From Phoronis australis (taxonomy: Eukaryota; Animalia; Phoronida), in NCBI GenBank assembly GCA_002633005.1, contig NMRA01000425.1, positions 220,805-284,804 on the forward strand: a stretch of DNA of 64,000 bases, read 5' to 3'. Shown piece after piece: positions 12,792 through 40,740 of this stretch. Positions within the stretch are counted from its first letter, which is position 1. Every line of letters starts with the position of its first letter. The position numbers were made by a program, and so were the translations under genes. The notes under the pieces were generated by a model, which was given only the letters and a program-made list of their open reading frames with translations, ran no database searches and was not told where the DNA came from.

Positions 12792-13523
12792 ACCATCTCT
12801 AAGTGATAATGTTGTCTCACTGTACTTTGTGAAACGAGGAAAGAAGGGGGAGGGGCTGATTTGAGCTGTTGTCCAATCCCATTGCTGATTGCTTATGTTT
12901 GAAGTCTCTTACTTAAGGAGGTATGTTGCTCATCCCCTGGACTGGTGTCTTAGAACTCAATTTGGAGCTTGATACTGGTACATTCACTTTGAGTTTGGTA
13001 AAGGTACAAAGTTAATGAAGCTTGTGTGATCATGTGCTTGGAATGTGGTGTGTGCATTGCGATATCTTGTCAAGTCTTGCATGATCTTGCATTTTTGTGA
13101 AGTTCTTGCGTCTTATGGGAGTCCTTGCCAGGAATAACGTGTATGCTATTTTGAGGTTAACTAATCAAATTTCAAGGACACAATTTCTCACCTCAAATGT
13201 TTTGTCCCTGGACTAAAGAGTGCATAATTATGCACCAGTTGACAATTATGTATTGTAAACATTATGAGATAAAATTGACAGAATTGTAACTGTGGTGTTG
13301 TGTATTATTGAATAAAAATGTGATCATTTGGACCCAAGTTTTTGACATATGCCCCCCTAACTAAATTAGCTGTTTGTGGGCAATTTTCTGGTGATGGTGT
13401 TGGCGTGGTCTTTTGCTATTGTTTTTTCACATTTGACTGACTTTTTTTCTTTTGCAGGCAGCACAGCTATGGTGATTGACACATGAGGCGTCTGTTGTAT
13501 AACTGTCCATCAGGCGGCGACTG

Positions 13524-14318
13524 ATGGCACGTCACAGAGCATCACGTGTCTCTATGAGAACCTGTCTTGTCATTCTGTCTGGGGTTCTGTTTGGGTTCTT
13601 CGTCACTTCTTGGTGGAAACGAACGATCTTACCATGTGGTACGACAGTCGATAAGGACCTAGATGACTTGGACGAACTCTTTGAAAAGGCCCTTGAGTCT
13701 ACACGGAGGCCACCTGTGCTGGTAAAAAAACCTAACATCATATCTAGATCAGAAAACTTGGTTCTGATTGGTGTGATGACGGCTCAGATCTATTTAGATT
13801 CCCGTGCACTTGCGGTCCACCAAACTTGGCAGAATTTCATTCCTGGTCATGTTCGGTATTTTTCACGGTTCAACTCAACTAGTAAACATAACTTGCCGGT
13901 TGTCGGGCTGGAGGGAGTCGATGACTCATACCCCCCTCAGAAGAAGTCCTTCATGATGCTCAAATATATGCATGACCACTATATCGACCAGTACGAATGG
14001 TTTATGCGTGCCGACGATGACGTATACATCAAACCGCATCGTCTTGCAAAGTTCTTGCGGTCACTGAACAGTTCCAAACCTCAGTTCATTGGCCAGGCTG
14101 GGCTCGGTACCAAAGACGAGTTTGGGCAACTCTCACTGGACTTGGACGAGAATTTCTGTATGGGGGGCCCTGGCGTTTTGATCAGTCGAGCGACACTGAA
14201 GCTGCTGGTGCCACACATAAGCTACTGCCTGAAGAACCTGTACTCCACACACGAGGACGTGGAGGTGGGCAGGTGCGTGAGAAGAGCTGCAGGGATCCCG
14301 TGTACCTGGGCATTTGAG
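13524..14318 (+). CDS. CHSY1: Chondroitin sulfate synthase 1-like, N-terminal coding exon A (canonical variant): type II signal anchor, stem and GT31/fringe-like domain
   Basis: The ORF carries CHSY1 motifs GVMTA, DDSYPPQKKSFMMLKYMHDHY, EWFMRADDDVY (DxD), FIGQAGLG, NFCMGGPG and HEDVEVGRC. Acceptor ttttcttttgcag ends at 13457. Phase-0 donor TTTGAG|GTGAGT follows 14318 (265 codons). Joined to the constant exon it reads CTWAFE|MQHLFY, like vertebrate CHSY1 CVWSYE|MQQLFY as recalled, and gives an 801-aa protein. Confidence 0.95.
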
Positions 14319-14359
14319 GTGAGTGTTGAATCATTTTACACTGCAGGGTAATACAGTGC

Positions 14360-14480
14360 CTATGTGGCTGAGTGGTTATAGTAGCGGGCCCTCAACCTGA
14401 AGGTGGCGAGTTCATCTCTTAAGGCATCTGTAAGTTGTAGTCATTGCTGCTGTGCCTTCAGCAAGGCACGTAAACCCGGG
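14360..14480 (+). mobile_element. Degenerate tRNA-derived SINE head
   Basis: A-box-like tggctgagtgg and B-box-like gagttcatctc, followed by gtgccttcagcaaggcacgtaaacc, which resembles a common SINE body motif. Confidence 0.45.
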
Positions 14481-17400
14481 TGGGGGGGGGTACGTGCCAC
14501 AAATTGGACAGTCTGGAAATAGTTATGGGTGATTTATCCAGACATGGTTGTTTTGAATTGTAAATCTCAAAATACTGTGGTTCCATGCTTACCCAATTAT
14601 GTGGGTGATTAACTTGAGCCAAACAGTCACCAGGGCCACTTGCTACCTTCAAAATTGATGTCCACTGTAAGTGAGACCACAGAAGTTAAAACAGCACCCT
14701 TCTTACCTATTAGCAAAGTATGTACCTTGAAATGTAGACATCCATTTTTCTAAAATATACTGCGAGTACTGTCTTATAACTTGTGGGTTGTATTCCATGT
14801 TTCAACATTCCAACCTGGCGATGACCACCATTTTGTTAGGATCTGCTGGTAAGCTCTGGAGCGTGTTTAGGAAACATGCAATTTTGTATAGTTTGGATTC
14901 ATGTCGCCTTTTTGGGAGAGTCTTACACTGAGGAAATGCAGCCAGGAGTGAAGTATTCATAAGTCTATTGACCACTGAACATATATACACTCTGACATGA
15001 GGTGGCTCATTGTTACTAGTGGTAGGGTGTTGTAGTTGGGCTGATGTACAACTCAGGGTCAGACAATTGACAAATTGTGATCTGTATCATATGTAGTGAT
15101 GTGAGCAGGGAATGATAGTGCTATTACTGATCTGGTTAGTGGTGCGCCATGTGGTGCAGGCACATTGGGTTGACAAGCTTGAGCTCCAAGTGGCTGCTGT
15201 TAAGTCTCCCCACTATTAGTCTGCTTCAGCTTCCACTGCTTGGCACTTTGTCTATCTTGCCTTTGTCTCATTAGCCAATCCTGACTATCACATCCTGTTA
15301 ATGAGACCTTCAGACAAATATCTGATAGGTCATCCAATTTATGTGTCAATCTAGAATATGGTGGGAGTTTGTGGACAGTCTTGTGATATTTTGTATCAAC
15401 CAACATGACCACATTTCTGTCTAGTCAAACTGACATTATAGCTCTTGGTGGGTGTTTGTGGACAGTCGTATGGTATTTCGTTTTAACCAACATTTCTGTC
15501 TAGTCAAATCAACATTCTAGCTCTAGTAGTCTTTAAAAAAGAAGGGTTCCAAAGTGCTGTGTGAATTAACATGAGAAATCATTGAGTACAGTGGATAGTT
15601 CCTCTTAGGAAGGCTGTAATATGTCGGACTACAAATTTTATTTTCTCATTTTTTGCAACAGATTTATGGAGCACCATCAAATCAAGGCATTACTGTTGTC
15701 AATTTTTTTTAAATATTATCGTAGCTATCATCAAACGATGTTTTGAAAAGTTGTGGATATTTATGGCAATGATATAGGTCCTTTAAAATGAAAATGGGCA
15801 ATTTATTGAATTATTTTTGCAGCAAATTGGTGAAATTTTACCAAATGGTGATTCTCAAGAAAAACCGGAGCAATTATAGATAATAAAAGTTACATGTCTT
15901 GATGTCCTCTGGTGAAATTGTTTCATTTTTTGTAAAGTCATTTTTAAAATTTTCTATAAAAACATTTCAGTTGATAACATTAAGATCTTCAGTTCTTGTC
16001 CCCCAACCTCTGAACATTGCCACTTAAGGTCAGGAAAAGGCATTCTGACGAGCAACCATCGTTAAAAGGTGAATTGCTTTCTCCCACTTTTTCCCACTTT
16101 TAATGAGACTATTTGTTTTAAGCAAGTTTTTGGTATCGTTTCAAAATTCGTAGCATCTCTAGAATATACTGAATTTCAATGTGTATTTGGAGAATAAGGC
16201 TAAGCCTGGATTTTGCAGTTACGGTAAATTCAAGAGCGCAGTGTATGAATATTGACTCCAATCTTTGATTCGTGAATAGCCAATTATAACAATGTTTTAT
16301 CGTTGCTTTTCATTAATGCGTTTTCTTCATGTTTTAAACTTAATTTGTCGAGAAAACAGAAATGTGCAAATACAAGGTGTGGAATGAAACTATGTGTGTT
16401 ATAGGGATACAGATTAAATCCGTTGCAATTGTTGTTGACGATAAATAAAAATCAGTCTTCCATTTAAATCTTGAACGACATGCAGTTGATGTGATTAAAA
16501 TCAAGATACTTAAAAGTTGATGATTTTACAGTTCAATATTTTTAATGAGTGTTGTCTTTGTAGCAACAAAACTGTGTTTCATGTTTTTGTTAGAAGTCAG
16601 TGAAAGCATGCGTAATAATTCAATCTTGTTTTCCACATTTTGTTGCCTGTATGGACTAAAAGATCTCATCTTTATGATTTTATCTGTAATTCAAGGGCAA
16701 AATATATCTTTGAAGCTACAAATTGATTTATTTTTATGTTGGAATGTGGTAAACATGCCATCACCATTCCCAATTTTTCTTATTAGATGTCTCTCATATT
16801 AGCCCGGCTCCATCACTGCTGAGTTTGTTTTGGCAGTGACTGTGTATGTATGAAAAACATGTGAAATGTTATTCTGATTCTGACAACTAATGTCAGTGTT
16901 ATTGCCTTGATGATACACATGAAACAAATTTGGATCTGTCGCCACTAGGTGTCAGCCCGTGTCACTGTAACGGTTTGTTGTCCTAAGAGGGATGAGATGT
17001 GATGAAACACAGGGTTAGTTCACAACGGAAATTCATTCGTGTTCACCATATGGACAAGAATGAATTTTTAAATGCTCAGCTGTGACATTTTCCACATTTC
17101 CTTCAGGTCACATTCAAGTTATAATGCTCAGCTCCATTCTCCCAAATTATTTGTACTTCGTTTCAAGTCTTCATATGATCTGTAGGGCTTGGAATTATCT
17201 TCTTTTAAGATGATTTCCTCTTTTATTTTGACTTAATTGATGCAAAAACATTTATTTCAGTTGAATTTTACAACAATATTGCTATCGCTCAAGCCTACTT
17301 ATTTGTGGAATGATACATCACCTGGAAATTTTTCCACTTTTTGTCACTGATCATTCTGAGATCTAGCATAAGATTCCAGTAAGTTTGATATCCTGATTAT

Positions 17401-18250
17401 CCCATTGTTCTGAACACAAATAGGTGAATGTAACTTGAGTTGATTGTTACTAAATTCAACCTCAAGACTGGTAAATATAATGTCGTGGGATAATTATTGG
17501 ATTTCATGTATTCTTTGATGTTTGACTTAGTAATGATTTAAGTGTTTTGAACCTTTTCTTTATTAGCGATTAAAGAAAATTCAAATGTAACGTGACTACA
17601 CAAATTAGGTTTAATTTTCTTCCATTAATTTTCACTCTGTTTTGCTCAGAGGGTCATTAAATGTGAAGCTAGAATTGCTACATTTCATGATAGAATGCTT
17701 TAAGGTCATAGGTACCACGATTTATAATCTCATTTATTTTATACCTGGTATTCTCAGAAGTTTACTTACAGTACATGACAAAATTAGACATAGTGCTGTT
17801 TTCCTGAAATGCCGGCTAATTCTGTTAACAGCAAAAATTGTCGCTAACAAAGATTAATGTAGCAAATTTTTAATGTCAAAATGATGCAGTCAACTCACTA
17901 ACTTTCTTGTTAATTCCCTTTCCTTCTCAGTCACGAGGGGAGACAACTCTGATGATGAATTCAGCTTCCGCCCAGCTGTCATGACAAATTTCAGATCATT
18001 TTGTCTGAATACTTGTGTCTTGCACTGTATACAGTTGACAGTTTTCGTTGTGTTGAATCTTGCATCACTTTGTTCCTGCGTTTTTGCAACTGTGTCACCT
18101 TATTTACCTTCAACCATCATGAGCTAATGGAGTAAACTCTCTGTTTTCACCTGTCAGCTTTTGTTGGTTTCAGAGGACCACAGAAATTTCATTATAAATT
18201 GAGAATTAATGTCTGCTGGGTGGGTGGATGGACGATACAACCGTCTAGAN

Positions 18251-18428
18251 GACACACATAGATATTGGAGCAGAGCAAACAATGTGCTATAAGGGACACA
18301 CATAGATATTGGAGAAGAGCAAACAATGTGCTATAAGGGACACACATAGATATTGGAGCAGAGCAAACAATGTGCTATAAGGGACACACATAGAAATTGG
18401 AGCAGAGCAAACGATATGCTATAAGGGA
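18251..18428. repeat. Tandem repeat, 44-bp unit x4, bracketed by a ~107-bp direct duplication (18142-18249 / 18449-18556)
   Basis: Unit gacacacatagatattggagcagagcaaacaatgtgctataagg; single N at 18250. Confidence 0.9.
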
Positions 18429-21400
18429 CGTCCATTAAATTCACGTCATGTTTTCACCTGTCAGCTTTTGTTGGTTTTGAGGACCACAGAAATTTCATTA
18501 TAAATTGAGAATTAATGTCTGCTGGGTGGGTGGATGGACGATACAACCGTCTAGACGACAATGTATTTTTCTTAGAGGGGATTACCTTACTCCTGTACAA
18601 AACTCAATTGTTTTGACTGAGAGTCAAAAATCATCTGGTATATCTTATGTAGACCCAGTAGTGGAAAGATGACATTTCATTTGATGAAAGTCCCTGGCAA
18701 AACTGACAAGAGGTGTACCTCGATTGTTTGTTTGTAGAAGGGTCATAAAGCTTGTACTATTTGCGTTTATTGAGGTGGTTGATTTGAGCCACATGTTAGT
18801 AATGGAAGCTCCATGCTTAATTCCTGTTCTTGGTTCCTTGACACAGTGTGGTGCCGCCCACTGCCTTGATATGGTTACTTGAGTTCAATGAGGTCCTGTA
18901 CTCATTGTTTACTGGTAGTTTGTGGTCACAGAGTGGAAACAGTGAGAAGCGACAGGGAAACTCCAGCAAGTTTTCTTGATTCTGGAATTTGGGACGAGGG
19001 TGATTTTTGGCATTTTTTTAGTTCTCAAAGTTCGCATGCCTCGAACTATAGCATGACACTTGGCTTACCTCAAAATCCAACTCTGCCTGGTGGTAATTGG
19101 CTCAACTATGTTGCACCTCCCTCCCCGCATAATTAATGAGGAGTATTGTATTGTTACATAACACAAATGTTTTTAGACTGTATAACTCACATTCCTTCTC
19201 CAATTTTCAAAATTCATCAACCTAATCATGTGTACTTTTCATGACTATTCAAATTTGTTACTTAAAAACTTTCAAAACGAAAATTTAAAAATGCTATTGT
19301 TGTAGGCAAACTGCCCGAGTTGCCGAGTCTCTACCGATGAGATTGGCAACATAGGATTCTTTTCATAGGGATAATGTTTTGTTGTGTTGTTTTCAGCGTA
19401 TAGAGCGGGTAATTCTGCTGTCTTTTCAGTGGTTCTTGAAATTGGGACAGCATGTCTCTTTGACCCAACTTTTTCTAGAATTTGGGACAAAGAAGCTCCG
19501 ACCTTGAGCAAAGTAATTAATTAGACATCATCCCAAATTCGAGAAGTTTTACCCTATTTAAAGCTGCACATCACAACATTTTGTAGGCGAAAATCAAAAA
19601 TTAAGTTTTTTACTCTTATAAAATCGGTCTCTTATGGAATCTATCTCATAACAGTTCCTTAACCATGACAATTATTGTGTTTCCTTGACTGTCGAAAGCA
19701 TGAGAAGTATTATGAAAATACCCCAGTTTAGTTCAAAGTTAAAAATGATGCATGTACTCATTTGCCTATGACTTGAGTGTCGGGTTCTTTGGCAACAATT
19801 CAAGGTCTATTAGCATGGTAATAATTTTTGAAACCCCAAAGTGTTTCAGTTATGAATTCAGCATTGACTAGCTAACAGCGGCAAAATGCACCTTTATTGC
19901 TATTAATGGCCTTTCTAAAATAATGCATTGACAACTCTAATAATACTGATAGTTTGAAGAATAACTGCAATAATTAGACAAGTAATGGTTTTTATGAAAT
20001 ATGTTCACTATAATGTGTGTGTAACACAAAGATTAATTGATTAAACTCTTGAACCGAGTAATTGCTCAGTGACAGGTGTGTTTACCCAGAATTTGCTCTT
20101 AATCAAGCATTTTAAAACACCATTATGCTAGACTATTAAAACATTATAGCTTTTATGATGTTTTTGTTAGCAGAAATGCCAGTCTAACAGAAGTGCAGCA
20201 ATAGATGGATTCACTCAAGTATAAATTAAAATATTTTAGTTAAAATGTTCCTAGTTAAAATGGTTTAGCTTCGAAACTTGATTTCGTCAAAATTTTTAAT
20301 GGAATCGAACACCAGCTGCAGCTGTTGATTTTTGTACGAAACTGTTATTTACCACCGTACTGTNTTTTATGTGATTAAACAACACTGCAACACTAGTGAT
20401 GTTTCCTTTTCTGTAAAAAAGCTGTCCTGTAGTTGTGTGTGACATTTCAAAATGTTCTGGTTAAAACATCAAAATGCATTTAAAGCATGCGATTTTGTGG
20501 AACGTTTTATGTTATAACTATTCTAGCTTTAACAGTTTAAAATGCATGCACTGATAGAACTTTAACTGTGTCATTCATTTCAGTTTCATAGTCAAAATTC
20601 AACCTATAGTGATTAAAAAAATGAATGTTTGTGTTCCTTAAAATTACTTTGATCAAAAACAAGATTACTGTGTTCTGTTGGTGAAAACTGTAAGTCACAA
20701 CAAAGCAGATTTAAAGCCAGAACATGACGGGAAGGCGGGTGGGGGGGGTGGGAGTGCATCTAAAGTAGAAGATTCATCTGGACCTTTGTAATAGGGAGTG
20801 TATTAGTGCTCCTGTCCTTATAATGTGTAGGGTTCCTGTACAGTCTTCCATGTCTTGTAAGCAGTAGTACTGTTCAAGGTTGATGAAAAAGTTGGTTGAA
20901 ATTATGAAACCTGTCCCAGGTTACACAGCAACACTTGAATTTTGCTGTATTTACCCACAATGCCGTAAACATCCGTCTGGCACATTAGCTGCCTCACTGG
21001 CGCGCCATTGGAGTTTTGCGTGTTAGTTGTTGTTGTCTTATTATTTATAATTTTTTTCTCTGCTGCTTTAGTCTATTTGTCCTTCCAATGCTAATAAAGT
21101 ATTACTGAGCTGTGCTGTAGGCTGCTGTGAGAAAGTTTAATAAACTGGACAAATACCTGTGGATGCGTGATGTGAAATTCTTCACCTTCCCAACGTCAAT
21201 GAGAGACATGAAAATGTGCCCGATTTCCAAAACGAGGTCTTGCGCTTACTTATCTCCGGGACATTAAGGAGAGTCCTGTCGCCGTGCCATCTGGGGTGGC
21301 CCTATTGGTTGGAAAGTTAACATTCTGATATTCCTATTGGTTGAAAGTTAAGAAATGCCTTTATGCACGTGACAGCAATAACTACACATGACTCATGCAC

Positions 21401-21610
21401 TCCCCACACGTTAATATTTCGCGACTCGTTCAGGATAACAAAGGTGTCTATTAAAGCATATAATGACTCACTATACCTTCTGATTTTCTTTCCTCTTCAA
21501 ACGTCATAACTGGGCCAATTGCCCACACTGAATCATAATTGTAAAAACACCATCCTCGCACTTTGCCACTCTTCCGTAGGTGGCGCTGTGAAAGAGTATA
21601 ACACTAAAAT

Positions 21611-22573
21611 TACGAGGAGCGGAAAGGGCAAAAATTGTGAAAAAAAGAAAATCAGCTCTTTTTTGTAAATTCAATTGTATTTAATGAATTCAATGCTATT
21701 TAAATATAATTAAATCCTGTTTCCTAAATTCAAATCTATTCTATTAATTCAACCCAATTTAAAATAAAAATCCAACCTGTTCGATAATTCATCTTAGTTT
21801 GAAAATTCAATTAAATCTAATAAAATCCATCCTGTGTAGAAGATCCCGTTGCTTTTATAAAGTCAGATGGTGTTTTAAATATTCAAGCTACAGCCATTTA
21901 TTCAGTCCCTTTCTGGAGATTCAGTCAACATTCGTAAACTGAGTGTGTAAAATTGATTGTGTTTAAATAAAAAATTATCCTGTTTTGGAAATTCTATTTT
22001 GCAAATCCTGGTGGTGGGAAGCAAAACTAGTTTGTCACGTGACTGAAAATGGTGTAGCTCACTCTGGTGCTCTTTGTTAATGAGATTAAAAATATTAAAG
22101 TTCAGATTCTTGCAGGCAATTTTTTTGGTGGAAATGTATACACTGTACACGCTTGAGCATTCGTTGCGAAGACTTTTTGATCTGACTAACTTAGAAGGAT
22201 CGACGTTAATACTGATACGGGCTTCAGCCTTTCATAGCGGGATTAATATCGGGAATCGCTGACAGGATTGAAGACTCTAATAAAACACGATCGATTTTTA
22301 TAACGGGGTTAGTTTTGTAAATTGCCAAAAGGATTGACAAAACAGGGCCGATTTTATAAAACATGCTCGATTCTCCGAAACAGGTTCGCTTCCAAACAGG
22401 GTTGTTTTCCATAGAATTGAATTTAGAAAACAGGAATGATTTTTAAGTAGGATTAAATTTACAAAATAGAATGTAATGATATTTTAAGCAAGGTGAATTT
22501 ATTAAATAGAGTTGAATTTACAAAGCAGGGTTGCTTTTCGTTTTCACAATTTTTGCCCTTTCCATCCTTCCTA
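21611..22573. mobile_element. Non-autonomous foldback-like TIR element with 6-bp TSD (IS3EU-like)
   Basis: Left end tacgaggagcggaaagggcaaaaattgtgaaaa pairs with right end ttttcacaatttttgccctttccatccttccta. TAAAAT is duplicated at 21605-21610 and 22574-22579. Internal AT-rich short repeats run in opposite orientations. Confidence 0.7.
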
Positions 22574-24614
22574 TAAAATGACATCAATTAAAAGTATTTG
22601 ATATCACATCCAAGTACATTTTAAATGTGACTGATGTGTTGAACATGTTCTTGATTATTTTGATTATTTGGAATCAAAATTTCATTTTTCAAATTCAGAT
22701 AATAATAGAATTTTGAGTTAATATTCCATGTTTCAAAGTTCAATTTCAATTTGAAAATTGAACTGGAATCCATCACAGGGACCGTCATGATTCCCCACCT
22801 CCTTGGGCGTTGACCCCTTTAAGTAAGGTAGTGTCCTGCAGTGTCCTGCTGTGTGATAGCATTCCCTAATGAAGCATTAACAATCAATCAGTGGTCACAT
22901 TACTTGACAGACTAAACAATTTAAATGCAGGATCTACAGTAACCACTTTAAATTACAAAAGCCACATGTTTTAAAGATGTAATTTTCTTTTAAGTATTTG
23001 TTAGAAACTGTGCTTATTTTTGTTTTTACTCCAAGGAAGCAAGTGTCTTGGGGCAACTAAGTATCTACACCAACTGCATGCTTCTTAAAGAATTTGCTAT
23101 TATAAGTTACAGTCTTTAACCCTAACGTTGTCCTCACAGGAAGTGAGATGCATTATTCCTGTAGGAGTCAACAAGGTGGAGATGATTTAGCCAAATTATT
23201 GGCTTCAGACCTAGGTTTCACAGGGCCTTCATCTGCATAATGTGGTCAGGCCTGCATGTCAATCTTATTCTAAATCAATGAACTTCAACTATCCTAATAT
23301 ATCGGGTTTATCTAGAGGGTTTCTACTTTCAACAATTTTGAAAGAGTACTTTTAAAACTTGGAATTCTGAAACAAAATTTGGTGCATTCTTGACAACTAG
23401 ATTCATTAGTGCCATCTAATGGATGGTTTCTCAGTCCGGCATATCTAAACTATTTAATAATAGCTACTTAACTCTACATGTATTTGAAACGGAGCAACTT
23501 GCTCTTAAAAGCCATTTTTACTCAAGAAACAATTGTGACTGCATGAGCTGCTGGGCTTATTAGTTGCATTTAGGTACATGACTCCAGATTGCAAATTGGA
23601 TCAACATGAGTCATCACACTAAGACTGTCCACGTGTGCTCACATAAAGAATAGAGATTGTCCAAAACCCGCGGAATGCCATTGGATCACCTGCATAAACC
23701 TTATGCCACAAGCGTAACAGGGGTGCTCCCTTCCGCTTTCTCCCAGTTTGTGTTTGGACATGTAGTGGAGCGACTGATCGATCGAGTAAAACTTGATCTG
23801 CTTCTGAAACTGGTGTCAGAAGTGGTCACTACCGTGTCAACTTGCTACAGTGTTGATTCGCTGTTCCGTGTCGGCTGCTCCTTGTCAAAAGTTCCTTGTA
23901 TAAATACAAATTATAAATTAATGAATTTCCGGTTGTTTTCTAATCACTTCTTCTGAAATATTGGGAGCAATTTGATTCCTGGGTTGTAGCGGAAAGTTAG
24001 GTTTTAGCCATGCGTTAACTGTCAATTAAAAAAATCCTCAATGAATATTCATATTTTGATGTAAAATATTGTTCCAGTTCGGTTCGTGACACTTGTAAAA
24101 AAGAAAATTAGTTGAGACAACTGTAAAAATAATTTGTGTTGTTCTGCGATCTCAGCTGTGACAAACTTATAGTTAGCTTTAAGGTCAGTGGTCTTCACAA
24201 CCTGTTGCTTGAAGTGATGAAAGTCTGTTTTAGAAGTCACACACAGACTAAACAAACAAGTGTCCTGAGATATGATACTTTGGAGTGTTTGTTTTTAAAT
24301 CCAATGTTGGTAAATGTTTAGTGTTTAGAGAGAGATATCTCCACTGGTTGTTGTGTTTACCATTTTGTTTATATCATTTCTTAAAAACACTTTCTGTGCA
24401 TTAGATTACGTGATAAGTTGTTCTAGGTGAAAATAGCGAAGTTTGGGACGGGTCTCCAAAATTTGGGACAACGAAATTTGAGTGGAGTTAAATTTTTTGA
24501 TCGTGAAGATTGGGCCGTGGGTTCTGTCATTTTTCTCAAGTATCTGACACTACCCGAAATAATGTTTAGTTCATTGTTGTACACAGTTGCTGTTTTTACA
24601 GGAGTAACAGTAAT

Positions 24615-24683
24615 GTCACAGTGAGAGTTGTCACGGTGAGAGTTGTCACGGTGAGAGTTGTCACGGTGAGAGTTGTCACGGTG
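24615..24683. repeat. Tandem repeat, 15-bp unit gtcacggtgagagtt
   Basis: About 4.5 copies. Confidence 0.9.
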
Positions 24684-29029: not shown

Positions 29030-29393
29030 ACTAATCCGAAGATGCAGTTAAGGTCCAAAGATGCAGTTAAGGTCCGAAGATGCAGTTAAGGTCCGAATGT
29101 GCACTGAATCTGATGGTTCACTAGTCTGAAGGTTCACTAGTCTGAAGGTTCACTAGTCTGAAGGTGCACTAGTCCGAAGGTTCACTAGTCCGAGGGTTCA
29201 CTAGTNCTGGTCCGAAGGTGCACTGGTCCGAAGGTGCACTGGTCCGAAGGTTCACTGGTCCGAAGGTTCACTGGTCCGAAGGTTCACTGGTCCGAAGGTG
29301 CACTGGTCCGAAGGTTCACTGGTCCGAAGGTTCACTGGTCCGAAGGTGCACTGGTCTGAAGCACACTAGTCTTAAGGTGCACTAGTCTGAAGG
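29030..29393. repeat. Minisatellite, mostly 16-bp unit ggttcactggtccgaa; possibly the terminal array of a foldback element
   Basis: About 20 copies, with an inverted remnant ccttcggacttaactgc at ~30201-30217. Confidence 0.9.
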
Positions 29394-30032
29394 TCTACTA
29401 ATAAGGTGTTGCTAAGCGATAAAACATTTTAAATGCAATTTTTGTTATACGAAACTCACTCCGGCAGATGCGCCCGGTAACCATCGGGAGAATCAAGTCA
29501 GTGACTGCTCTTTATTTACTTTGCGGGGTTTGCTATAAGACATTTGATTGGTTTATGGGTGTAGAAGTTGTCACCAGCAACCAGTCGAATGTCTCTGCTG
29601 GTTGGAGGAGTGAATCAAATGTAGCCAGGGATTTTAAAGAATGAAAACGTATAAAGGCACAGAATACCATGAGATTCTGTTAGAAAACTTCCTCGAATTG
29701 AGATTTTTGGCGAACGCCCAAATTCATGCCTGTATGTCATCCTTTTTGTCTCAAGGTTTGTGCAAGATTTATGATCAATAACTCACAGTCAACAATGAAT
29801 TGTTTCACTTTGTATTCATTCATTAACGACAGTGTGTGGCAGCACAAAGTATCATCTTCGATGTCGCACGAATGCATTACAGCAACATTTTTGAAAACGT
29901 TTGGAAATTGTTTTTCACATCTATTCAGTGACGCACCGAAGAGTCATATACAGGCATGACTGCCACTGCATATTATTACATGTAGAAAAATACGAAAAAT
30001 TCACTTGAGTATGAAATGTTCTATTTCATCGT

Positions 30033-30186
30033 CAGTGGCGGATTTAGAGGGGGACCAAGGGGGGTGCTCCCCCCTAAAACTCCCAAATTCCATTTGGCAG
30101 TTTGGGGGTGCTCATGTCTGACGGACGAAATCTTGACTAATACTCTGCCCTGGCCCCCCTAACTAAAAATCCTGGATCTGCCCCCG
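30033..30186. mobile_element. Small hAT-like MITE
   Basis: Ends cagtggcggatttag and ctggatctgcccccg form an imperfect inverted pair. No clean TSD. Confidence 0.5.
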
Positions 30187-31356
30187 ATCCTATAAGTACA
30201 CCTTCGGACTTAACTGCCATGTAATCTTTGTACAAAGTTGATTATCTGCTGTCCAATTTTGCTTTCTGGTTCTTTTCATATGATGCGCAGTGTTCAATGT
30301 AAAATTAAGCTGATTGTGAATACATCGCATCTCCCGCNNNNNNNNNNNNNNNNNNNNNNNNNNNNNNNNNNNNNNNNNNNNNNNNNNNNNNNNNNNNNNN
30401 NNNNNNNNNNNNNNNNNNNNNNNNNNNNNNNNNNNNNNNNNNNNNNNNNNNNNNNNNNNNNNNNNNNNNNNNNNNNNNNNNNNNNNNNNNNNNNNNNNNN
30501 NNNNNNNNNNNNNNNNNNNNNNNNNNNNNNNNNNNNNNNNNNNNNNNNNNNNNNGTAACCATTTTTGTGATTTTGTAATATCTTAAAATGTCATCAAACC
30601 TGCATTTTCCACATTTTAGGCTGTAATTATGCAAATGTTAGAGAAAACCAATTATTTGGGTGTAATAACATCCACCAATTCTGAGAAAGTAGTGCTAGAT
30701 TACGTTTCCACTTCATTAGCTTGAACACAAAGTGCGTGCTGAATAGGCATTATAAAAGTTGTCTGAGGGCAACCAGAAGAGTGTAAGCTGGAAATGCTCC
30801 ACATGGAAACGAGTTAAAACTTAAGACCATGTCAACATCTTGATGCAAGTCATAGGCTGTCAGTAGAAACACAATTTTAATGTTGAAATGTGGCAAGATA
30901 AACCCTTCTGTGTTTTAGCTCGGGCTTGTCTGTGGGTGTGAATGATTTGTGCCACGTACTCCTGCTACTAGGGTGGTCGATATGTATTATACGTAATTTT
31001 TCACAGTAACCCTAAACAGTAGTTTACTGTCAAATATGGAAGTTTCAAGAAATTGTGCTGTAAGTGAAGTTATTGAGAAGAATTTAGCACAACGACAGCA
31101 ACTCTGTATTTCAACAGCAACTGTTCTTATGATGGTAACTTTGGTAACGAAGATGTGGAATGCAAATGCCTATATTCGTACTTAGTCGTGGGGGCACTTT
31201 ACCTGGTTTTGGATGACAGTCTCCTGCCATTAATTTGAATGTAACTGCCCTACCATTACACCCTTTATAAGCCTGTTTGGCTTATGGATCACTTTGCGTT
31301 TTATGCTCAAAACTTGACATTTTGCTGTACATTGACGTATACCCCTAATAGATGTA

Positions 31357-32635
31357 CCGTAAACGTTCGGGTTAACGCCCATGCTCAGTTAACCGTCCAC
31401 CCCCTACTTTAGGTGGATTTTCGATTTAACCGCCCACTGCTCGGTTAAGCGCCCCCCTGCGATTTTTGAAGATTTCCAGTTAAGTGCCCACCTCTCGGTT
31501 AAGCGCCCATCCCCGACTTTTAAAGANNNNNNNNNNNNNNNNNNNNNNNNNNNNNNNNNNNNNNNNNNNNNNNNNNNNNNNNNNNNNNNNNNNNNNNNNN
31601 NNNACGACGCCGGGCCTCCGAGACGGTGGTTTAGCAATGTGAATTGCAATTATACAAGTAACGAGTTATTGTCTTGGGTATGAACTCACTTCAAAATATT
31701 ATACTTGAACGTTTTTGTCACTTTATTTTCTTCCCATGTTTGCAAAGTTTAAGAACGCCGCCGGCGTCAAAACCTCCGCTTTCAGCGACTTTGTCTGCCG
31801 CGCTGAGTTTTCGTCTGCAGTGTACTTGATAAAACTTATTCGAAAAAATCAGGCCAGAGAAATGAGACAATGGAAGTATATAATCACGCCCGTTTCTGTT
31901 ACTTAGGACTGTCGCTATTCTCTTTTGATGTGTGACTTGTAGTGGTGCACGCGCGCAAGTTCCCACACTTCAGAGTGCATGTTACCGTGACACCAACATG
32001 TGATTGACAGGTGACTCGCACGTAGGCCCTACGCGCGTGCTGAATCCCTCCGCTATCTTTGGCCATAAAAAACGAGATGCATATTGAAAGAGGTCGTTAT
32101 ATTACTTGACGGCATTTCCAAGTCACGATTGTCAGCCGACTGAGACATTGCGCGCTAACAACGGGACCGAACAGTGCCGCAGTGCGATATTGCAAGTGNG
32201 ATCGTGTTTTGTGAGTCCGTTCCCGTGTTTGTGAGTCAGTGGACGGTGTTTGCAGGTCCGTGAGTCGTGTTAATGAGTCCGTTGACCGTGTAGTTTAGGT
32301 ACCTTGACTAATCTGAGGGCATGATGACCTTTGTTAGGATCATCCGCTGTTATGACATTTTTCCTGTCATGTGACGACGTGACGATAACGCTCTTTGAAA
32401 AGTGCTACGTGTTCCAGTAGGCCTACGTGTGTGGTGTGGGTACTTAGATCACGAGGTAAGATTAACCGCCCAGGGCGCTAATGCCTGTCGTAATAAGCGC
32501 CCATGTTCGGTTAACCGCCCACCCTGGATTTTTTGAAGTTTCACGTTTAAGCGCTTATGTCTGGTTAACCGCCCACCCCCGATTTTTTGGGTTTGCCAAT
32601 TTAACCGCCCAGGGCGTTAACCCGAACGTTTACGG
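31357..32635. mobile_element. Non-autonomous TA-targeting TIR transposon (Tc1/mariner-pogo-like), spans a small N gap
   Basis: Perfect 24-bp TIR CCGTAAACGTTCGGGTTAACGCCC, TA on both flanks, and many subterminal TTAACCGCCC/TTAAGCGCCC motifs. Confidence 0.85.
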
Positions 32636-33294
32636 TATGTACATTACCTGTATGCATTACCTCAGCCCTGGTCAATAATGAAAACGCTCTCTTTAGCAAA
32701 CATAATTTTAAAATGTTATGACCAATATAGTAATTATGTGGGTGTAAAAGCATTATGTGGTATATCAATGCGTGTTGCGGCCAACAGATGGCGCGCTCGT
32801 GGTAGTAAATCAAAGAACACACGAATGCTTTAACAATAGAATACGTCTATTAATTTGCAGCGTTGTGAATTACAAACAATAGATTACATCGAGTTGTGAG
32901 ACTGACGACTGTTCGAATGAAACGATATATCGTTACAGGTGAAGTATTAATCTACAGTGCCACCAGTTACCCGTAACTACCGCACACGTTAATGCAATAC
33001 AAGTCGCAACATGAACTGACCCGTTAGAACAATCACTAGACTGGTTCAAATTGACTAACAGGCTGAGACCAACGCCTGTATTAAGTGTCTATACCTCGGC
33101 TCCTGGACTTGACGTTAAGTTGAACTGGTTTCCTCGCCTTCGCTGTCGGCTTCTTTTGGAGACGATGTCGTGGTTTATGGTCTTTTGCGATCTGATGTCG
33201 TGGTCTGATTTTCCTCGATGGCCAATGCCTTAAATACTATTCCAGCTGGCATCACATGATGGGCCCATCTCTTGACGGTGCGCGTGACACTTGC

Positions 33295-33683
33295 ATAAGT
33301 ATTTATTAATCTGAATGAAGTTTGCTCAGCACAACCAAATCGGCTGACTATTGGAACAATTCTTGCATAACACCTGGGATAAGTTCTACTTCAGTTAAAG
33401 ATTTGATTGTGATGCGCTTTTAAATTTCGCAATAAGTATTTATTAATCTGAATGAAGTTTGCTCAGCACAACCAAATCGGCTGACTATTGGAACAATTCT
33501 TGCATAACACCTGTGATAAGTTCTACTTTATGCGCTTTTAAATTTCGCAATAAGTATTAATTAATCTAAATGGAGTTTGATCAGCACAATCAAATCGGCT
33601 GACTATTTGAACAATTCTTGCATAACACCTGTAATAAGTTCTCCTACAGCAAAGGTATGATTGCAATGTACTTTTAAATTTTC
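33295..33683. repeat. Triplicated ~118-137-bp unit directly upstream of CHSY exon C
   Basis: Copies begin ataagtatt at 33295, 33432 and 33550. Confidence 0.9.
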
Positions 33684-33771
33684 GGAAACCTCAATTAAAT
33701 GCAGAGGGCCTGGCCTCATTATATTACAATTAGTAGAATCCTCTTCAAGATAGCAACCAAATAAAAGTATT

Positions 33772-34515
33772 ATGTTCATGCTGTATATCGCGTCAGTCGG
33801 TGATATGTTTGGCCTTAGAAACTGGAGGCTGATTCTTTTTGTGGGTGCTTTTATTGTCTCCCATTTTCTGACAACTAGACTTGTCAGTTTTTTCAAGAGT
33901 CGACCCTGTCGATTCACAGGTGCTACTGAGCAGGAAGTAGCGCAGGTATTGGGCAAGAGGAAGCTTATGTTTATCGGCGTAATGACAACCAAGGAATTTA
34001 TTCATACGCGAGCTCTGGCTGGATATCGAACTTGGGCAAAGAGTTTCTTGGGCGATATATTGTATTTCTCGAGCATGGGTACTAAAAGTAGTGTAGTACC
34101 TGTGGTTGCTCTCAATGGTGTTGACGATCATTACCCCCCACAAAGGAAGTCTTTTGCAATGCTGAAGTATATGCATGATCATTTCATCATGCAGTACGAA
34201 TGGTTCATGAGAGCAGACGACGATTTATATATCAGACCATCTGAGCTTGTCCACTTCCTGTCATCCTTGAACAGCAGTCGTGATCACTATATTGGTGCCG
34301 CTGATCGGAAGGCTGGTGAATGTCAAGCAAGGAATTTTGAACACGGCGATGAGCACTATTGTTGGGGTGGTCCTGGTATAATTTTTAGTGCGTCCACGTT
34401 GCTGAAGACTGTTCCTCTCATCGATGACTGCTTGAATAATCTGTTAACTGTCCATGAAGATGTAGAGGTTGGCCGCTGCGTTCGTTTGGCTTTGAACATG
34501 TCATGTGCACCTAAT
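33772..34515 (+). CDS. CHSY1: CHSY1-like alternative N-terminal exon C (divergent GT31 domain with own signal anchor)
   Basis: Intact frame with MFGLRNWRLILFVGAFIVSHF (anchor; ATG at 33772 or more likely 33805), GVMTT, YPPQRKSFAMLKYMHDHF, EWFMRADDDLY, HYCWGGPG and HEDVEVGRC. Phase-0 donor CCTAAT|GTAGGT follows 34515, at the same aligned position as the exon B donor. Confidence 0.85.
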
Positions 34516-36769
34516 GTAGGTCATGATGATCACTTGTTCATCAAAGTGTTTTGAAACTGCTGAACTAAATGGTTTATGAGTAAGCTAAATCACTCATTGT
34601 TATGCTAAAACATTCATTTTTAAGCTAAATGTGGTAATTCTCCTCTCAGGTTTTGCACAGAATAAATTATTTTTTCCCAAAAATCAGGGTGTCTCAAATC
34701 AAACATACCATATACACCTACTGAGATTAGCCTAGAACGATGGTTATTGATTAATGCCACAGCATCCTAATTTGGCGACCTCCAGCTTGTGATATGCAAC
34801 CTCAGATTGACGGTGGCAACTTCATATAAATTAGATCAGCAGTCGCCAAATGCACCCTCAAGATTGAAGATTTTGCTAGATTTTTAATAAATTTGTCGAC
34901 AAGTTTGACTTTTCTGCATATTTAGGTACCAAAATACGAAATAGAGTGGCAAATGAATGTGAGCCTAATACTGCTGTGTACTATTATTTGTTCTAGTTAT
35001 AAAAAATATTGAATAAAAGCGAGTAAAAAATGTGTTAGCTCAATAATTTAAGGGGCATTAATTAATAGAAAGTTAGAGGTCTGAAAACATGTTTTTGATG
35101 ATTACTGCTGGCACAATTATTGTTGGTGGCTGTAAACTGATGTTTATCATGGGATGTTTTAGTTGATATTGCCTGTCAGCAATAGTCTGTAATTTCAGGT
35201 TCACTGATTTGCAATTACACCACACCATATGTCTGTCTTCTTTCAACTGCACTGCCTTGCCATTTCATCACACCATACCTCTGTCCTCATTTCTGGGCTG
35301 AGTACATGGAACCCAACTGTTACACGAAGCCTGACAAGTCCAGACCAGACAGTCTGCTCTATTTTAACCCAGATGAACCTCAAACAGTCTCTCATCTCCA
35401 CCTGACACTGTGTAGTGAGATTATTTTACCTTGGGCTCTGTTTGAACTTTTTGAGCACACTTTCAAAACATGTTCCGATAAAATCTCACAAGTTGGGACA
35501 CAATATGGCCGACAAATGGAATCTTGTTTGCTCATTATTTCATAAAAGTTATATAGCATCAAATTATTGCTTTACTAATTCTGTAACTTCTGTACTCCAG
35601 CTACCATCAGCAAATATTTTGAAAAATTGTGGACATTCACAGCAATGTTAGATGACTTGGATGAAAAATGAAAGTTATGGCATTTGTCCAAAATTGGTGA
35701 GAGAACTTTACCGTAGCTCAGAATGGTAAATTATCGCAATTTATTGCAGGTTGTGGTCAGAAATTGTCAATATTTGTCCAACATCAAGCATATTCTCTAT
35801 TCTTGCACATATAGTTTTCTGCCTGTATAATGACTCTAGTTACACGACTTCAAAAATAATTACCTTTAGTCTAGACCAGTCTAGTCATTTTTTGTACTTC
35901 TTTCCTGGGGTTTTGTCTCCAGATATCTGTAAATCTTACTTTGACAAAAGATGACAAAAATGTGTGTCACTCCGAAGAGTCACAGTATCATTTCAGGACC
36001 CTAGAAATAATAATTTTCCCGATTTAGGTCACTTCATAACAACACATCTCAGAAATGTCTGATTGTATTCAAATGAAAGTGCTCTATATTGTTAGGAATG
36101 GTTTTTCGTTTTTGCATGAGAACCAATCAAAGACTTCTTGAAAAAATTAAGTTGCATAAACGAAAAGGAAATGATAATTTAGAAAAGTGAAACTTTTAAG
36201 ATTTTGTGTAGTAAAACATTTCATGTGGACAAAGTTAGGTCATGTTATTCAGGTGCTATTGGTTTGCGATGAATGAGCACTCTTCTTATATGCTATAAGA
36301 CATGGTCACCTGATCCAATCACTGGCAGCTTGGTATAAAATCAGAAATTTAAATCTATGTACCTTTTTAACTTAAAATTTAAATTTTAGACACTTCAAAG
36401 GCTGTAAATTAGAAACTATAATCCTGGAGCTCGATAGCTAGCCTATCAAAAGAGCAAAAAACAAATGTCTAGATTCATTGGATAACTATTGTCTTGACAC
36501 AGCTTAAGTTCAAGATTGTAATTGCACATCTCTACTGAACAAATACTTGCAGTTTGCTCATATTATTCTACAGTAGTAAGTGGTGTAGTGGCAACTCGGG
36601 ATTGTCTGTTACGACGAAACTGCGGTATGATAAGTGCTTCCGTTTTGTCAAAAAAATTTCTTTAGGGACATTCAGAACGCTAAGATCAGTTGTTCTAATT
36701 ATTGAATTATTTATGTTATAGTTGTGCCTGATGCTGAGGTGGAGTGAGCAAAGGGCATCGTTGCCCTTT

Positions 36770-36987
36770 TCGAACAATATCCCCACTTAACCCTTTATGT
36801 TGTAGAGCCCAGTAAGGCCACCATATTGCCCATTTGGAAGAATATCCCCATTTAACCCTTTCTGTTTGAGAACCCAAAGGCCACCATAGCGTGTTTGGAA
36901 CAATATCCCCACTCAACCCTTTCTGTTAGAGAACCCAAAGGCCACCATTACCCATTTGGACAAACAAATTCCCCACTCAACCCTTTC
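36770..36987. repeat. Degenerate ~62-bp tandem repeat, about 3.5 copies
   Basis: Recurrent aatatccccacttaaccctt...aaggccaccat. Confidence 0.8.
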
Positions 36988-38276
36988 CAAAGCAGGTTTG
37001 AGTTTTTATTAACATCTTGAAAGGTCTTCTGCAACTGATTTGCACTGCTTGACTATACACCTGACTTGTGCTTTCTGTGTTTTCTCAAGTGTGGCTTAGT
37101 GTTGTCATAGTGACTAAGGTTTCATTTTTCTCATTCTATGTGTGTGGCCACCTGAAAAAGGGAAGTTGATCATTTCACTAATTGATTTGTTGGTGGGAAC
37201 ATGAGCAAGAAACTAAAATTTGTTGAATATTTAGAATCAGCGGTTAATGCCAACATCTGGACATCAAGACAACGATTGAAGTCTGAAGTGTACTTATAAA
37301 AAATCTGCTTAGGCTTCACTTTGAATTGCTTATGTTGTCTTTACCTGTAACTTGCAATAAAAAGTGCACTTGCGGCCGCTTTAGAAGCAGTTAAGTTTCT
37401 GAAGTTGACATTTCAATGATTGAACTCTTCCATTTATTCATTGTAGCATGATACCAACGAATGTCCATGTTTTGCACCAATATTCATTCTGTACAGACTG
37501 TTATAGCCAATGTCTCACTGTAATGTGGTGCCCTCTCCAGTCCAGAGCCCTCAATTCCTCGATTTTGGGGCTGAATATCGGCCCCATTCCCTTCTGAAAG
37601 TATTGAAATATCACGCGACATTCCTCTCACAATGCCCAAAAATTCCCCTCAAGTTCGAATCACTTGTATTTCACACAGTTGACAATTTGAAAGAGCACAA
37701 AATGTTAGTTTTGGTTACAAGAGGCAGAGCCTACGAGGGCTTGCAACAGGTTGGGGGTGCTATTGATGGTGACCAGGAGGTAGAATTTCCCCTCACCCCA
37801 AAATACTCCNTCTGTCATCCATTTTATGCCAGTTGTCTTAACTTGTCAGATACCCCACATGGGATTTACCTGTTTGCGGGATGCCATACATTAATAGGAT
37901 GAAAATTGTATACTTTTTACAAACTGTATAGTTTTGTATTTAAGTGCTGCTTGTGACATTACTACCAATATTTTGTTTGCAGCTAGTGTAAATGTCATTT
38001 TGACATTCATCATACTTTTAGCTTAGGTGATCAATGAATGGACTTAATAGCCTCTTAATTGCTCATAATTGCTATAGAAAGTTAACATTAACTACAGAAG
38101 GTAATTTTAATTTGTCTACAGTTTTGTGTAAGTGCTTTGGACTTGCCAGAGTTTGAGTCTCGTATTGGCCTGCAGAGAGTTCGAGTCTCGTATAATGGCC
38201 TGCAGACTTATTGAGCATTGATCTCTTAACTTTTGTGTTTGGCGTTGAGTATGTGAAACGGAAAGAATGTGTTGTA

Positions 38277-38437
38277 CCATAAACTCACAGGTTAAAGCCC
38301 ATGTCCAGGTAATCGTCCACCCTCGACTTTTGTGGCAAATTTCGATGTAAGCACCTTCTGATCTGGTAATCACCCTCCCTGACTTATGCCAATCTTCGAT
38401 TTAAGCGCCTTCTGGGTGTTAACCCGCAAGTTTACGG
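38277..38437. mobile_element. Short MITE related to the 31357-32635 element
   Basis: Ends ta|ccataaactcacaggttaaagccc and gggtgttaacccgcaagtttacgg|ta. Confidence 0.6.
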
Positions 38438-39129
38438 TAAACACATACAGATTCAGTGATCAGAATGATCCGATTAACGTCACCTAAGCTGTCACATTAT
38501 TTACCTGGCTAAAACACAAACATCAATTTTGGCCTTCTATTCTCATAAAGTTGGTTTCTTAATATTCCTTACTGTGACGGGATTCTAAACCATTACCTAG
38601 AGGAACATCGCAAACGTCAGTGACTCAAGAAAACTCGTCAGAGTTTTATTGTGGTTGCATGGCCAACTCTAAAATTGTGAATTCAAAAATGTCACTCGTA
38701 TGCATTGTTTGTAACTTGACTCATTTGGCATCAATTTAAGATCGGTTGAGTGTTAAATGTTTTTAAATCCCAAAGCACATCTGTTAAAAATTCAACATTG
38801 ACAAAAAACAGGGGCAAGTGCTCCTTTGCAATAAAATAATTTTCAAAAAAATGAGTAATGTGCTAGTGGACATTTTTCTCTTGCACTTAAGACCGTGGGT
38901 CAAGCTAATGAAAATCATGGGTGTCTGGATAGACAACTCTTCGATTTCACTCTGAATTACTTCACATTAGACTCATGTTTATAAGGTACTATCCGCTGGA
39001 GATTAAACGTGATCGCAGTTTGGCAAAGATGTCTGCCAGACAACTTCTAGACGCAGGACACCATCAAGTAGCACCATTGTAAACTCGTGTCCATCAATGT
39101 TGATATTGACAGTTTTCCTCTGTTTGCAG

Positions 39130-40740
39130 ATGCAGCACCTATTTTACCACAACTATCGCAAGAACACCTCATACCTCCCCCTGCTTAAGTCGAAGGAGGT
39201 ACAGAGAGCCATCACCCTGCACCCAGTCAAGAACCCTGCCGATCTCTACACATTGCACGCCTCCATATTGGACCGTAAGAGCCTGGAACTCAGGCACAAG
39301 ATATTACTGCACCAGCGGGAAATTGCTAAATTCAGCGACCTTATTTCACCTGTCCAGAAAACCACGACAACTGCGGAGCATGGCAAGATTGCTCAGCGTC
39401 CATCTTTGATGAATTTTATTCCCGAGTCGACATCAGAGGTGTTGCCATGGGAGTTCATCACAAAGAGCACTGTTTATTCTGAAAAACTGCTGAACCCCAA
39501 AGTGGGCTATGATGTCATGACCAGGTCAAGCCTGGATGACATCATCGTACAGGTGATGCGTATGATCAACAAAAACTCGCGTCAGAAGGGTCGCACAATA
39601 GACTTTAAGGAGGTGTTGTATGGCTACCGCCGATTTAACCCCCTCTACGGTGTTGACTACATTTTAGACATACTGTTGACGTACAGGAAACACAAAGGCC
39701 GCAAGATGACAATACCTGTACGAAAACACGCTTATTTGCAGCAAATGTTTGCAGAGGTAGAGTTCTTAGAGGACTCCATATTGCAGGTGCCAGATGACTC
39801 AACTAGGCTGCTGAATCAGCGGCCGTCGGCTCTGATGCAGTTATTCCAGAAGAGTTTTAACTATGTTTCACTAAAATCTGCTCATAGGACTAAACGGAGT
39901 TCACCTGCTGTCAGCTCACGAGCCATGGTGCATATGATTCTGCCACTGGCTGGACGCCAGAAAATATTCAACAGGTTTCTGCTGAACTTTGAGCAGGTGT
40001 GTCTAGAGGAAGATGACGCCGTCAGCCTCACTGTCATTCTCTTTCCTAGTCAAGACTCTGACAACCGCCGCTCATTGGAGTTGATAATCTCACTCAGTAA
40101 AAAATATCCCCATCGCAGTATTAGAGTGGATCAGACGAAGGAGCCATTCTCGAGGGCACTTGCCTTACAAAAAGGGGCGTCCAAGCACGATGCTAACTCT
40201 CTCCTGCTTTTTATTGATGTTGACATTTACTTTGACCATGCTGCCATCAATAGAGTACGATTGAACACAAGACAATATAGTACACTATATTTTCCCATAG
40301 TGTTCAGCCATTATAACCCTCAATATGGCTGTGCCATCAGCAACTCATGTCCACAATCTCCATTTGTCTTCCACAGTGACATGGGCTACTGGCGCCTGTT
40401 CGGTTTCGGTATTGCAGCCATGTACAAATCTGACATGGAGATGGTCGGTGGCTATGACGTCACCATCAAGGGGTGGGGGAAAGAAGATGTACAGTTCTAC
40501 ACTAACGTCCTCAAGAGCAATCTGACGGTGTTCCGTGCTGTGGAGCCTGGAATGGTGCACATATACCACCCAATCAGCTGTGATTCCAACCTCGACCCAG
40601 CTCAGTACGACATGTGTATAGGCAGCATGGCATCCACATTAGCTAACCAGCAAAGATTGGCTGAAATAGCCTATCAGTCACCAGAGATCTTGGAACATCC
40701 CTTAGCTGTTGGTAATGACAGCCAAGATGCTGAGAAGTGA
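39130..40740 (+). CDS. CHSY1: CHSY1-like constant (last) exon: end of the GT31 fold (AITLHP), middle region and C-terminal GT7-type GalNAc-transferase domain
   Basis: Acceptor ttttcctctgtttgcag ends at 39129, phase 0. The 536 aa include MQHLFYHNY, AITLHPVKNP, TIDFKEVLYGYRRFNPLYGVDYILD, RKHAYLQQMF, FSRALAL, FIDVD (DxD), YFPIVFSHY, GYWRLFGFGI, GWGKEDV, HIYHPISCD and QYDMC. Stop TGA ends at 40740. Confidence 0.96.
   Translation: MQHLFYHNYRKNTSYLPLLKSKEVQRAITLHPVKNPADLYTLHASILDRKSLELRHKILLHQREIAKFSDLISPVQKTTTTAEHGKIAQRPSLMNFIPESTSEVLPWEFITKSTVYSEKLLNPKVGYDVMTRSSLDDIIVQVMRMINKNSRQKGRTIDFKEVLYGYRRFNPLYGVDYILDILLTYRKHKGRKMTIPVRKHAYLQQMFAEVEFLEDSILQVPDDSTRLLNQRPSALMQLFQKSFNYVSLKSAHRTKRSSPAVSSRAMVHMILPLAGRQKIFNRFLLNFEQVCLEEDDAVSLTVILFPSQDSDNRRSLELIISLSKKYPHRSIRVDQTKEPFSRALALQKGASKHDANSLLLFIDVDIYFDHAAINRVRLNTRQYSTLYFPIVFSHYNPQYGCAISNSCPQSPFVFHSDMGYWRLFGFGIAAMYKSDMEMVGGYDVTIKGWGKEDVQFYTNVLKSNLTVFRAVEPGMVHIYHPISCDSNLDPAQYDMCIGSMASTLANQQRLAEIAYQSPEILEHPLAVGNDSQDAEK

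Follow-up and report, generated by a model that had tools for sequence, protein, structure and literature searches.

The stretch of the Phoronis australis genome analyzed here, 64,000 nt of contig NMRA01000425.1 (positions 220,805 to 284,804; hereafter, the window), contains a chondroitin synthase (CHSY) gene in which three tandem paralogous exons, A, B, and C, stand ahead of one putatively shared constant exon, K. This arrangement is present within the window, subject to the N joins of the scaffold. Each of the three variable exons encodes a transmembrane anchor and the core of a glycosyltransferase family 31 (GT31) domain, and the features are arranged as follows.

13458..14318, + strand: exon A, the canonical CHSY GT31 exon, with its acceptor at 13458, ATG at 13524, and a phase-0 donor after 14318.
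14319..39129, + strand: the A>K intron, 24.8 kb, containing B, C, and several repeats.
26655..27368, + strand: coding part of exon B, transmembrane anchor and GT31 core, phase-0 donor GTAAGT; candidate acceptor 26636, second ATG 26676.
33772..34515, + strand: coding part of exon C, transmembrane anchor and GT31 core, phase-0 donor GTAGGT; candidate acceptors 33750, 33754, and 33797, second ATG 33805.
39130..40740, + strand: constant exon K, comprising the GT31 end, a helix/cystatin-like linker, and the GT7 domain.

Counted from the ATG, the coding lengths are 265 aa for A (13524-14318), 238 aa for B, and 248 aa for C; all frames are open and all three end at phase-0 donors (A GAG/GTGAGT, B TAT/GTAAGT, C AAT/GTAGGT). 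K, preceded by a pyrimidine-rich CAG, encodes 536 aa plus the stop, giving predicted products of 801 aa (A), 767-774 aa (B), and 773-784 aa (C). The coordinates, open frames, ATGs, phase-0 sites, and product lengths given in an earlier note on this DNA were all reproduced, as were the anchor, DxD, and HEDVExGRC motifs that it reported for each variable exon. A, B, and C each possess an N-terminal hydrophobic stretch (Kyte-Doolittle 19-mer maximum 1.8-2.0), a DDD metal motif, and HEDVExGRC, and each matches Pfam Fringe (E about 1e-16 to 1e-18); the type II anchor together with the GT31 DxD, G-loop, and xED is found in all three. The first 31-35 positions of Pfam CHGN are matched by A, B, and C, and positions 36-512 by K, which also matches GT7C. 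Core protein identity is 51% for A/B, 52% for A/C, and 56% for B/C, which rules out B and C as haplotype duplicates, and the stem connecting anchor and domain measures 24-29 residues in B and C versus 54. The earlier note placed the end of homology exactly at the donor in each exon; the donors are indeed all phase 0, but B and C end three residues past the last Cys (CIPY, CAPN), two codons before A, which ends five past it (CTWAFE), and the boundary is therefore not exactly homologous.

The claim of a single downstream partner exon was borne out: neither tblastn in all six frames nor profiles built from 122 K N-termini and 121 whole K halves revealed a second K in the window, the next-best matches having E values of 0.26 and 0.058, respectively. 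With a profile of 97 N-halves, A, B, and C were the only GT31 exons in the window. The sequence GTRRGT occurs 27 times across 24.6 kb of intron + strand (0.0011 per position), and the donors of B and C stand at the same codon.

CHSY1 and CHSY3 comprise a GT31 domain, a cystatin-like linker, and a GT7 domain and form obligate heterodimers with CHPF (PDB 9q8z, 9o4g), a domain layout likewise given in the available portions of PMC12748766 and PMC13389171. According to the available text of the former, the GT31 domain of human CHSY3 spans L173-P395; D261, D263, and H394 are the Mn ligands; D231, K238, D262, R187, Y233, and K397 bind UDP; and D342 is the base. Mapping of these residues (offset +31 on chain 9o4g_A) reveals that B and C retain eight of eight within their reach (R187, D231, Y233, K238, D261, D262, D263, and D342), and that H394 and K397 fall in K, within a TLHP motif whose His is K residue 31. 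The cut between variable and constant exons thus lies inside the GT31 domain, and an exon swap does not exchange the entire beta-1,3-transferase half, as the earlier note had supposed. The H394 equivalent and the GT7 DxD/xED are carried on the A+K chain, for which the splice was seen; for B and C, their presence depends on an inferred splice. From the residue positions, B and C would be complete enzymes only with the first ~35 residues of K. Bearing a full catalytic set under selection and no metal His, both would need a phase-0 partner exon, for which K is the sole candidate in the window; this missing-His argument, drawn from sequence, forms the main case for B>K and C>K splicing.

Transcription was assessed in three raw-read runs, X1-X3, of each of which about 19% was covered, and in a contig set, X4, the RNA status of which is the tool's guess. 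Four reads in X3 end at 14318 and continue with the first 30 nt of K (agreement 1), establishing the A>K splice in one of the three raw-read runs. Mean sense depth on A is 1.1, 1.2, and 3.3 in X1-X3, amounting to about 30 reads (about 15 fragments), with coverage ending at the donor. Sense depth on K is 1.0-8.0 in all three raw-read runs, and its 3' untranslated region (UTR) is transcribed to at least 41700. The A>K reads place B and C within an intron of an expressed gene, in agreement with the earlier assignment of both exons to a ~25-kb intron of the canonical gene.

At the other end of A, a 385-nt contig of X4 aligns from 13458 onward, and its 89 foreign letters join exactly at the AG of a strong acceptor (pyrimidine fraction 0.76). 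The 30 contig letters searched for the upstream exon are absent from the window (best local score 24; shuffles 20-30). On the evidence of this one contig, A is an internal exon with its upstream exon outside the window, and the variable-first-exon design proposed earlier fails for A. At 18 listed positions within A (13498-14282), the sequence of the reads and the contig departs from that of the window, reflecting high polymorphism or a divergent population. The 5' UTR of A contains two short upstream open reading frames (13469-13486 and 13483-13524), the TGA of the second overlapping the main ATG; translational control by these is possible.

Transcribed repeats border both B and C. A dispersed repeat at 25121-26448, just upstream of B, reaches a sense RNA depth of 480-630 in one bin, and part of it recurs at 1835-1934. 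A second repeat, at 33295-33728, is built of a 118-nt tandem unit and displays a sense-biased depth of about 10-12 in all three raw-read runs, falling to zero in C; it could either supply or disrupt a promoter.

Substitution patterns among the three exons reveal long-standing constraint. Fourfold sites are at random identity in the three A/B/C pairs (9/36, 8/39, and 12/40), and second codon positions are 71-75% identical. Synonymous divergence (dS) could not be estimated by NG86, LWL85, or YN00 owing to saturation; maximum-likelihood ratios of nonsynonymous to synonymous divergence (dN/dS) are 0.02-0.09, rough values given the saturated dS. In 2,000 simulation runs with substitutions only, an open reading frame of this size survived neutrally in 27-29% of cases at 0.05 substitutions per site, 9-10% at 0.1, and 1-2% at 0.2. 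Despite synonymous saturation, the frames of B and C are intact, as are their GTAAGT and GTAGGT donors, located at the same codon and in a phase compatible with K. Purifying selection acted on B and C for a long time after they arose; together with the survival analysis, this rules out neutral pseudo-exons since duplication. Saturated synonymous sites alongside intact frames and donors argue that B and C encoded protein and used their donors until at least recently, though not necessarily today.

Relative to canonical enzymes, B and C differ mainly in one loop. A retains 61 of the 62 columns that show 90% or greater conservation in 133 canonical sequences, whereas B retains 46 of them and C 48. 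Losses cluster in the loop at 288-307, where 7 of 8 conserved columns are altered in B (9/54 elsewhere) and 8 of 8 in C (6/54 elsewhere); the nominal Fisher p values, 2e-4 for B and 9e-7 for C, apply to a loop picked after seeing the data. Further losses in B and C lie at Trp359/Glu362. The canonical loop and Trp359 are kept by A and by neither B nor C, both of which are CHSY-derived but non-canonical. B and C are identical to each other at 10 of 20 loop residues and to A at only 2 and 3 of 20, the mark of a new motif that became fixed and has since been retained. The loop aligns with the C1GalT1 stretch holding Y213, Y218, and S220, which in the Drosophila enzyme contact the acceptor, with Y218A inactive (available text of PMC9065035); in the GT-A fold generally, variable loops set acceptor specificity (bioRxiv 2019.12.31.891697, in part). 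By analogy to C1GalT1, loop 288-307 and Trp359 may act in CHSY acceptor recognition. The rebuilt loop is common to B and C, and its counterpart in a GT31 relative is acceptor-binding, which suggests an altered specificity.

K is closest to Lingula and Owenia (48%), the collections searched holding no near relative of Phoronis, and groups with Lingula in a quick tree of 42 rows (Shimodaira-Hasegawa-like approximate likelihood ratio test, SH-aLRT, 90, unstarred). B and C are sisters, with a FastTree support of 0.979 among 162 homologues and SH-aLRT 97 in a 50-row subset. Constraining A+B+C to a clade is not rejected (approximately unbiased test, p-AU 0.44). Identity to Lingula/Owenia is 48% for K, 71% for A, and 42-45% for B, and in pairs with 40-50% N-half identity, K identity is at most 41.6% (n=1679). 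K thus diverged at the pace of A, not of B, which argues for exon duplication inside the intron over the remnant of a whole-gene triplication; a triplication in which K descends from the copy of C is ruled out by the same match.

We consider it likely that the locus is a lineage-specific variable/constant CHSY gene in which A, B, or C is used alternatively with K, A being the commonest choice. The large GT31 exon of one CHSY gene would have been duplicated twice inside its own intron: the first duplication would have produced the B/C ancestor, in which the loop between motif III and the G-loop was rebuilt and the Trp following the last Cys lost, and the second would have separated B from C. 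B>K and C>K would be rarer alternatives to A>K, probably restricted by tissue or stage. The resulting GT31 active site would be assembled from two exons: the variable one would contribute DxD, G-loop, and xED, and K the Mn His and pyrophosphate Lys. Enzymes with B or C would still bind Mn and a UDP-sugar, most likely UDP-glucuronic acid, with an altered acceptor preference, for example for differently sulfated or branched chains or for linkers. The GT7 N-acetylgalactosamine (GalNAc) transferase and the CHPF-binding linker would be constant across all products.

A series of observations weighs against this interpretation, beginning with the RNA. Of the three junctions for which the earlier note asked, 14318>39130 was seen. 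The other two, 27368>39130 (B>K) and 34515>39130 (C>K), are absent from the listing for 21801-41700, which covered 15 of the 65 joints and 24 of the 1426 loose ends, was dominated by repeats, and came from shallow data. The main bin of C has zero depth in all four runs, and the transcribed repeat at 33295-33728 ends about 44 nt before the first ATG of C. The two bins of B hold 259, 27, and 0 bases in X1-X3, versus about 4400 on A; these represent at most ~2 reads' worth, and the bins include repeats as a possible source. The candidate acceptors of B and C are near background, with a pyrimidine fraction of 0.60, at about the 75th percentile of 1266 intronic AGs. With only about 30 reads on A, minor or tissue-restricted B and C isoforms are neither supported nor excluded.

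The encoded proteins and their relatives add to these points. The Trp after the last Cys, present in 98% of the 133 canonical sequences, is lost in B and C, and in C a Trp replaces the G-loop Met just before GGPG. A B/C-K junction would leave 6 residues from the last Cys to the conserved hydrophobic motif versus the standard 8, the spacing seen in 113 of the 138 full-length homologues; 122 of these were matched and 16 were not, and no shorter spacing occurs among the matched ones. In the free tree, B+C stand apart from A, with long branches. Among 338 parsed of 423 proteins (85 lacking the parsed segment), no orthologue of either B or C was found, the best identities being 53.8% and 55.0%; only 1 of the 338 scores higher against B or C than against A, by 3 bits. 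The searches covered 40 of 568 candidates, 451 of 2565 with the best 120 listed, and the best 150 of 2191 matches; a search of 97 stretches for B/C relatives yielded one locus, nearer to A. Finally, A, B, C, and K are located on four separate contig pieces split by N joins.

The top one of the 2191 matches, P0159, was rejected as a B/C orthologue: it is an incomplete gene model from a psyllid, contains a repeated segment, and is nearer to A. Two apparent parallels for the arrangement also fell away: Haliotis isoform X2 is without the GT31 exon altogether, and in the 1422-aa Lingula record a neighbouring gene model has been fused on. Among 8610 pairs drawn from the two-half homologues, 137 of 308 proteins, none combined a shared constant half with a differing GT31 half (largest excess, 2 points), although database clustering could hide such isoforms. 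Divergent whole-gene CHSY-like paralogues are found in gastropods and an annelid (P0027, P0031-P0036, P0038-P0040); these too have lost the post-Cys Trp, and some are truncated before GT7. The enzyme appears, from these sequences, to have diversified repeatedly in spiralians.

Recent silencing is the alternative that survives best, although we consider it rather unlikely: B and C, or C alone, would formerly have been functional and then have been silenced, for instance by repeat insertion at the 5' side, leaving A>K as the only splice. The absence of reads on C and the at most about 2 on B would follow, the acceptors of both exons are weak, repeats lie directly upstream of each, and a frame outlasts 0.05 neutral substitutions per site in the 27-29% of simulations noted above. 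Yet frames, donors, and the 8/8 catalytic residues are intact in both, such that two recent silencings are required, and with about 30 reads on A, an isoform made at as much as about a fifth of the A level could have gone unseen.

An assembly effect is improbable. B and C would here head separate tandem genes, their own constant exons lying in gaps, collapsed, or mis-scaffolded, and the A-to-K interval does include six single-N joins and sized gaps at 30338-30554 (217 N) and 31527-31603 (77 N), with each exon on its own piece; molluscs and annelids, moreover, have divergent CHSY-like paralogues that are whole genes, each with a C-terminal half of its own. However, neither sized gap comes near 1.6 kb, little DNA is likely to be lost at single-N joins with overlap, and no K remnant is present anywhere in the window. 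Scaffolding ignores protein homology, from which we infer that the placement of two paralogues between A and K by error is unlikely; moreover, A>K is a real splice and K evolves at the rate of A. Elsewhere in the window, a direct duplication of 464 nt (94.6%) at 55161-56130 spans a single N at 55668 and probably represents two haplotype contig ends joined, a sign of short-read assembly from a polymorphic animal.

Slightly more improbable still is that B and C, through donor read-through and intronic poly(A), form short stand-alone membrane proteins acting as inactive decoys or CHPF-like partners: the frames do extend 54 (B) and 12 (C) codons beyond the donors, AATAAA occurs 91 nt past the B donor and 146 nt past that of C, and an inactive GT31 partner, CHPF, is known (PMC12748766 and PMC13389171, in the parts available), but AATAAA has a density of 0.69 per kb across the intron, the read-through tails show no relation to one another or to K, A reads through 10 codons too and yet splices, the B and C donors are conserved, and CHPF-type partners lose catalytic residues, all of which B and C keep.

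Under the favored variable/constant reading, a shared leader with mutual exclusion and separate promoters for B and C are about equally likely modes of exon choice. Including B (733 nt) alongside A would cause a frameshift, as would including C from two of its three candidate acceptors. Only one of nine comparisons for shared promoter, flank, or docking motifs among A, B, and C reached 0.01 (A/C downstream), and no docking complement exceeded random intron pieces. Neither the weak B/C acceptors nor the lack of shared flanks or docking complements favors one mode over the other. Just past the donor of A, a tRNA-like A-box/B-box stretch is visible by eye at 14360-14430, perhaps a short interspersed element; ARAGORN and Rfam report nothing there. 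A bolder proposal, of a modular polymerase in which the exon swap equips a fixed GalNAc transferase with a beta-1,3 transferase whose acceptor pocket, and perhaps whose donor, is new, is unlikely on present evidence; if true, one gene would build chondroitin and one or two undescribed glycosaminoglycan-like backbones.

Among known systems, A+K is an ordinary CHSY, matching CHSY1/CHSY3 in its domains, its catalytic residues, and the placement of an intron at the GT31 exon end; vertebrates and molluscs, however, diversify CHSY by whole-gene paralogues. GCNT2 (IGnT) is likewise a Golgi glycosyltransferase locus, with three tandem transmembrane-bearing variable exons spliced to constant exons, but belongs to another family, and its variable exons are highly similar first exons with their own promoters (available text of PMC1885805). 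In the Phoronis locus, an exon precedes A, identity among the copies is just 51-56%, the substrate loop has been rebuilt, and K carries a second, complete transferase. UGT1A, in the same text, assigns acceptor recognition to the variable exon and the rest to constant exons, and evolves by birth-and-death duplication; it differs in its GT-B fold, with a clean acceptor/donor domain split, from the present cut inside a single GT-A domain, which would make the active site a hybrid.

In Dscam-type clusters of mutually exclusive exons, homologous exons follow one another in tandem, flanked by an exon on the upstream side and a constant exon downstream. The present locus resembles them in its tandem homologous exons and in the frameshift that A+B would cause. 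It differs in that its exons are very large (about 720-860 nt) and carry a start codon and a transmembrane anchor, and in that no shared flank or docking element was found. Joining to the upstream exon is seen for A (one contig), and the B/C acceptors are not above background.

The variable/constant design has been called vertebrate-specific for UGT1, GCNT2, and UGT2A (PMC1885805, in part). No report of a variable/constant CHSY locus was found in the literature, in which subscription journals were thinly covered, and the available portion of a GT31 family survey (PMC8022947) contains no such CHSY arrangement. The general design is thus known (GCNT2, UGT1A), and its occurrence in CHSY is apparently undescribed. 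Substrate contacts are nearly identical in all four human complexes (available text of PMC13389171). Chondroitin backbone synthesis is treated as invariant; three GT31 heads on one constant body, differing mainly in one loop, would, if true, provide a natural test of CHSY acceptor specificity and might lead to new invertebrate glycans. Such a locus would also carry the variable/constant design into a spiralian and into a bifunctional polymerase.

Tail to tail with the CHSY gene, the minus strand carries a multi-exon gene for elongation factor-like GTPase 1 (EFL1) at 47361-63715, in which Pfam EFL1 and EFG_C score above cut-off in two of eight fragments. Human CHSY1 and EFL1 are both located on 15q.

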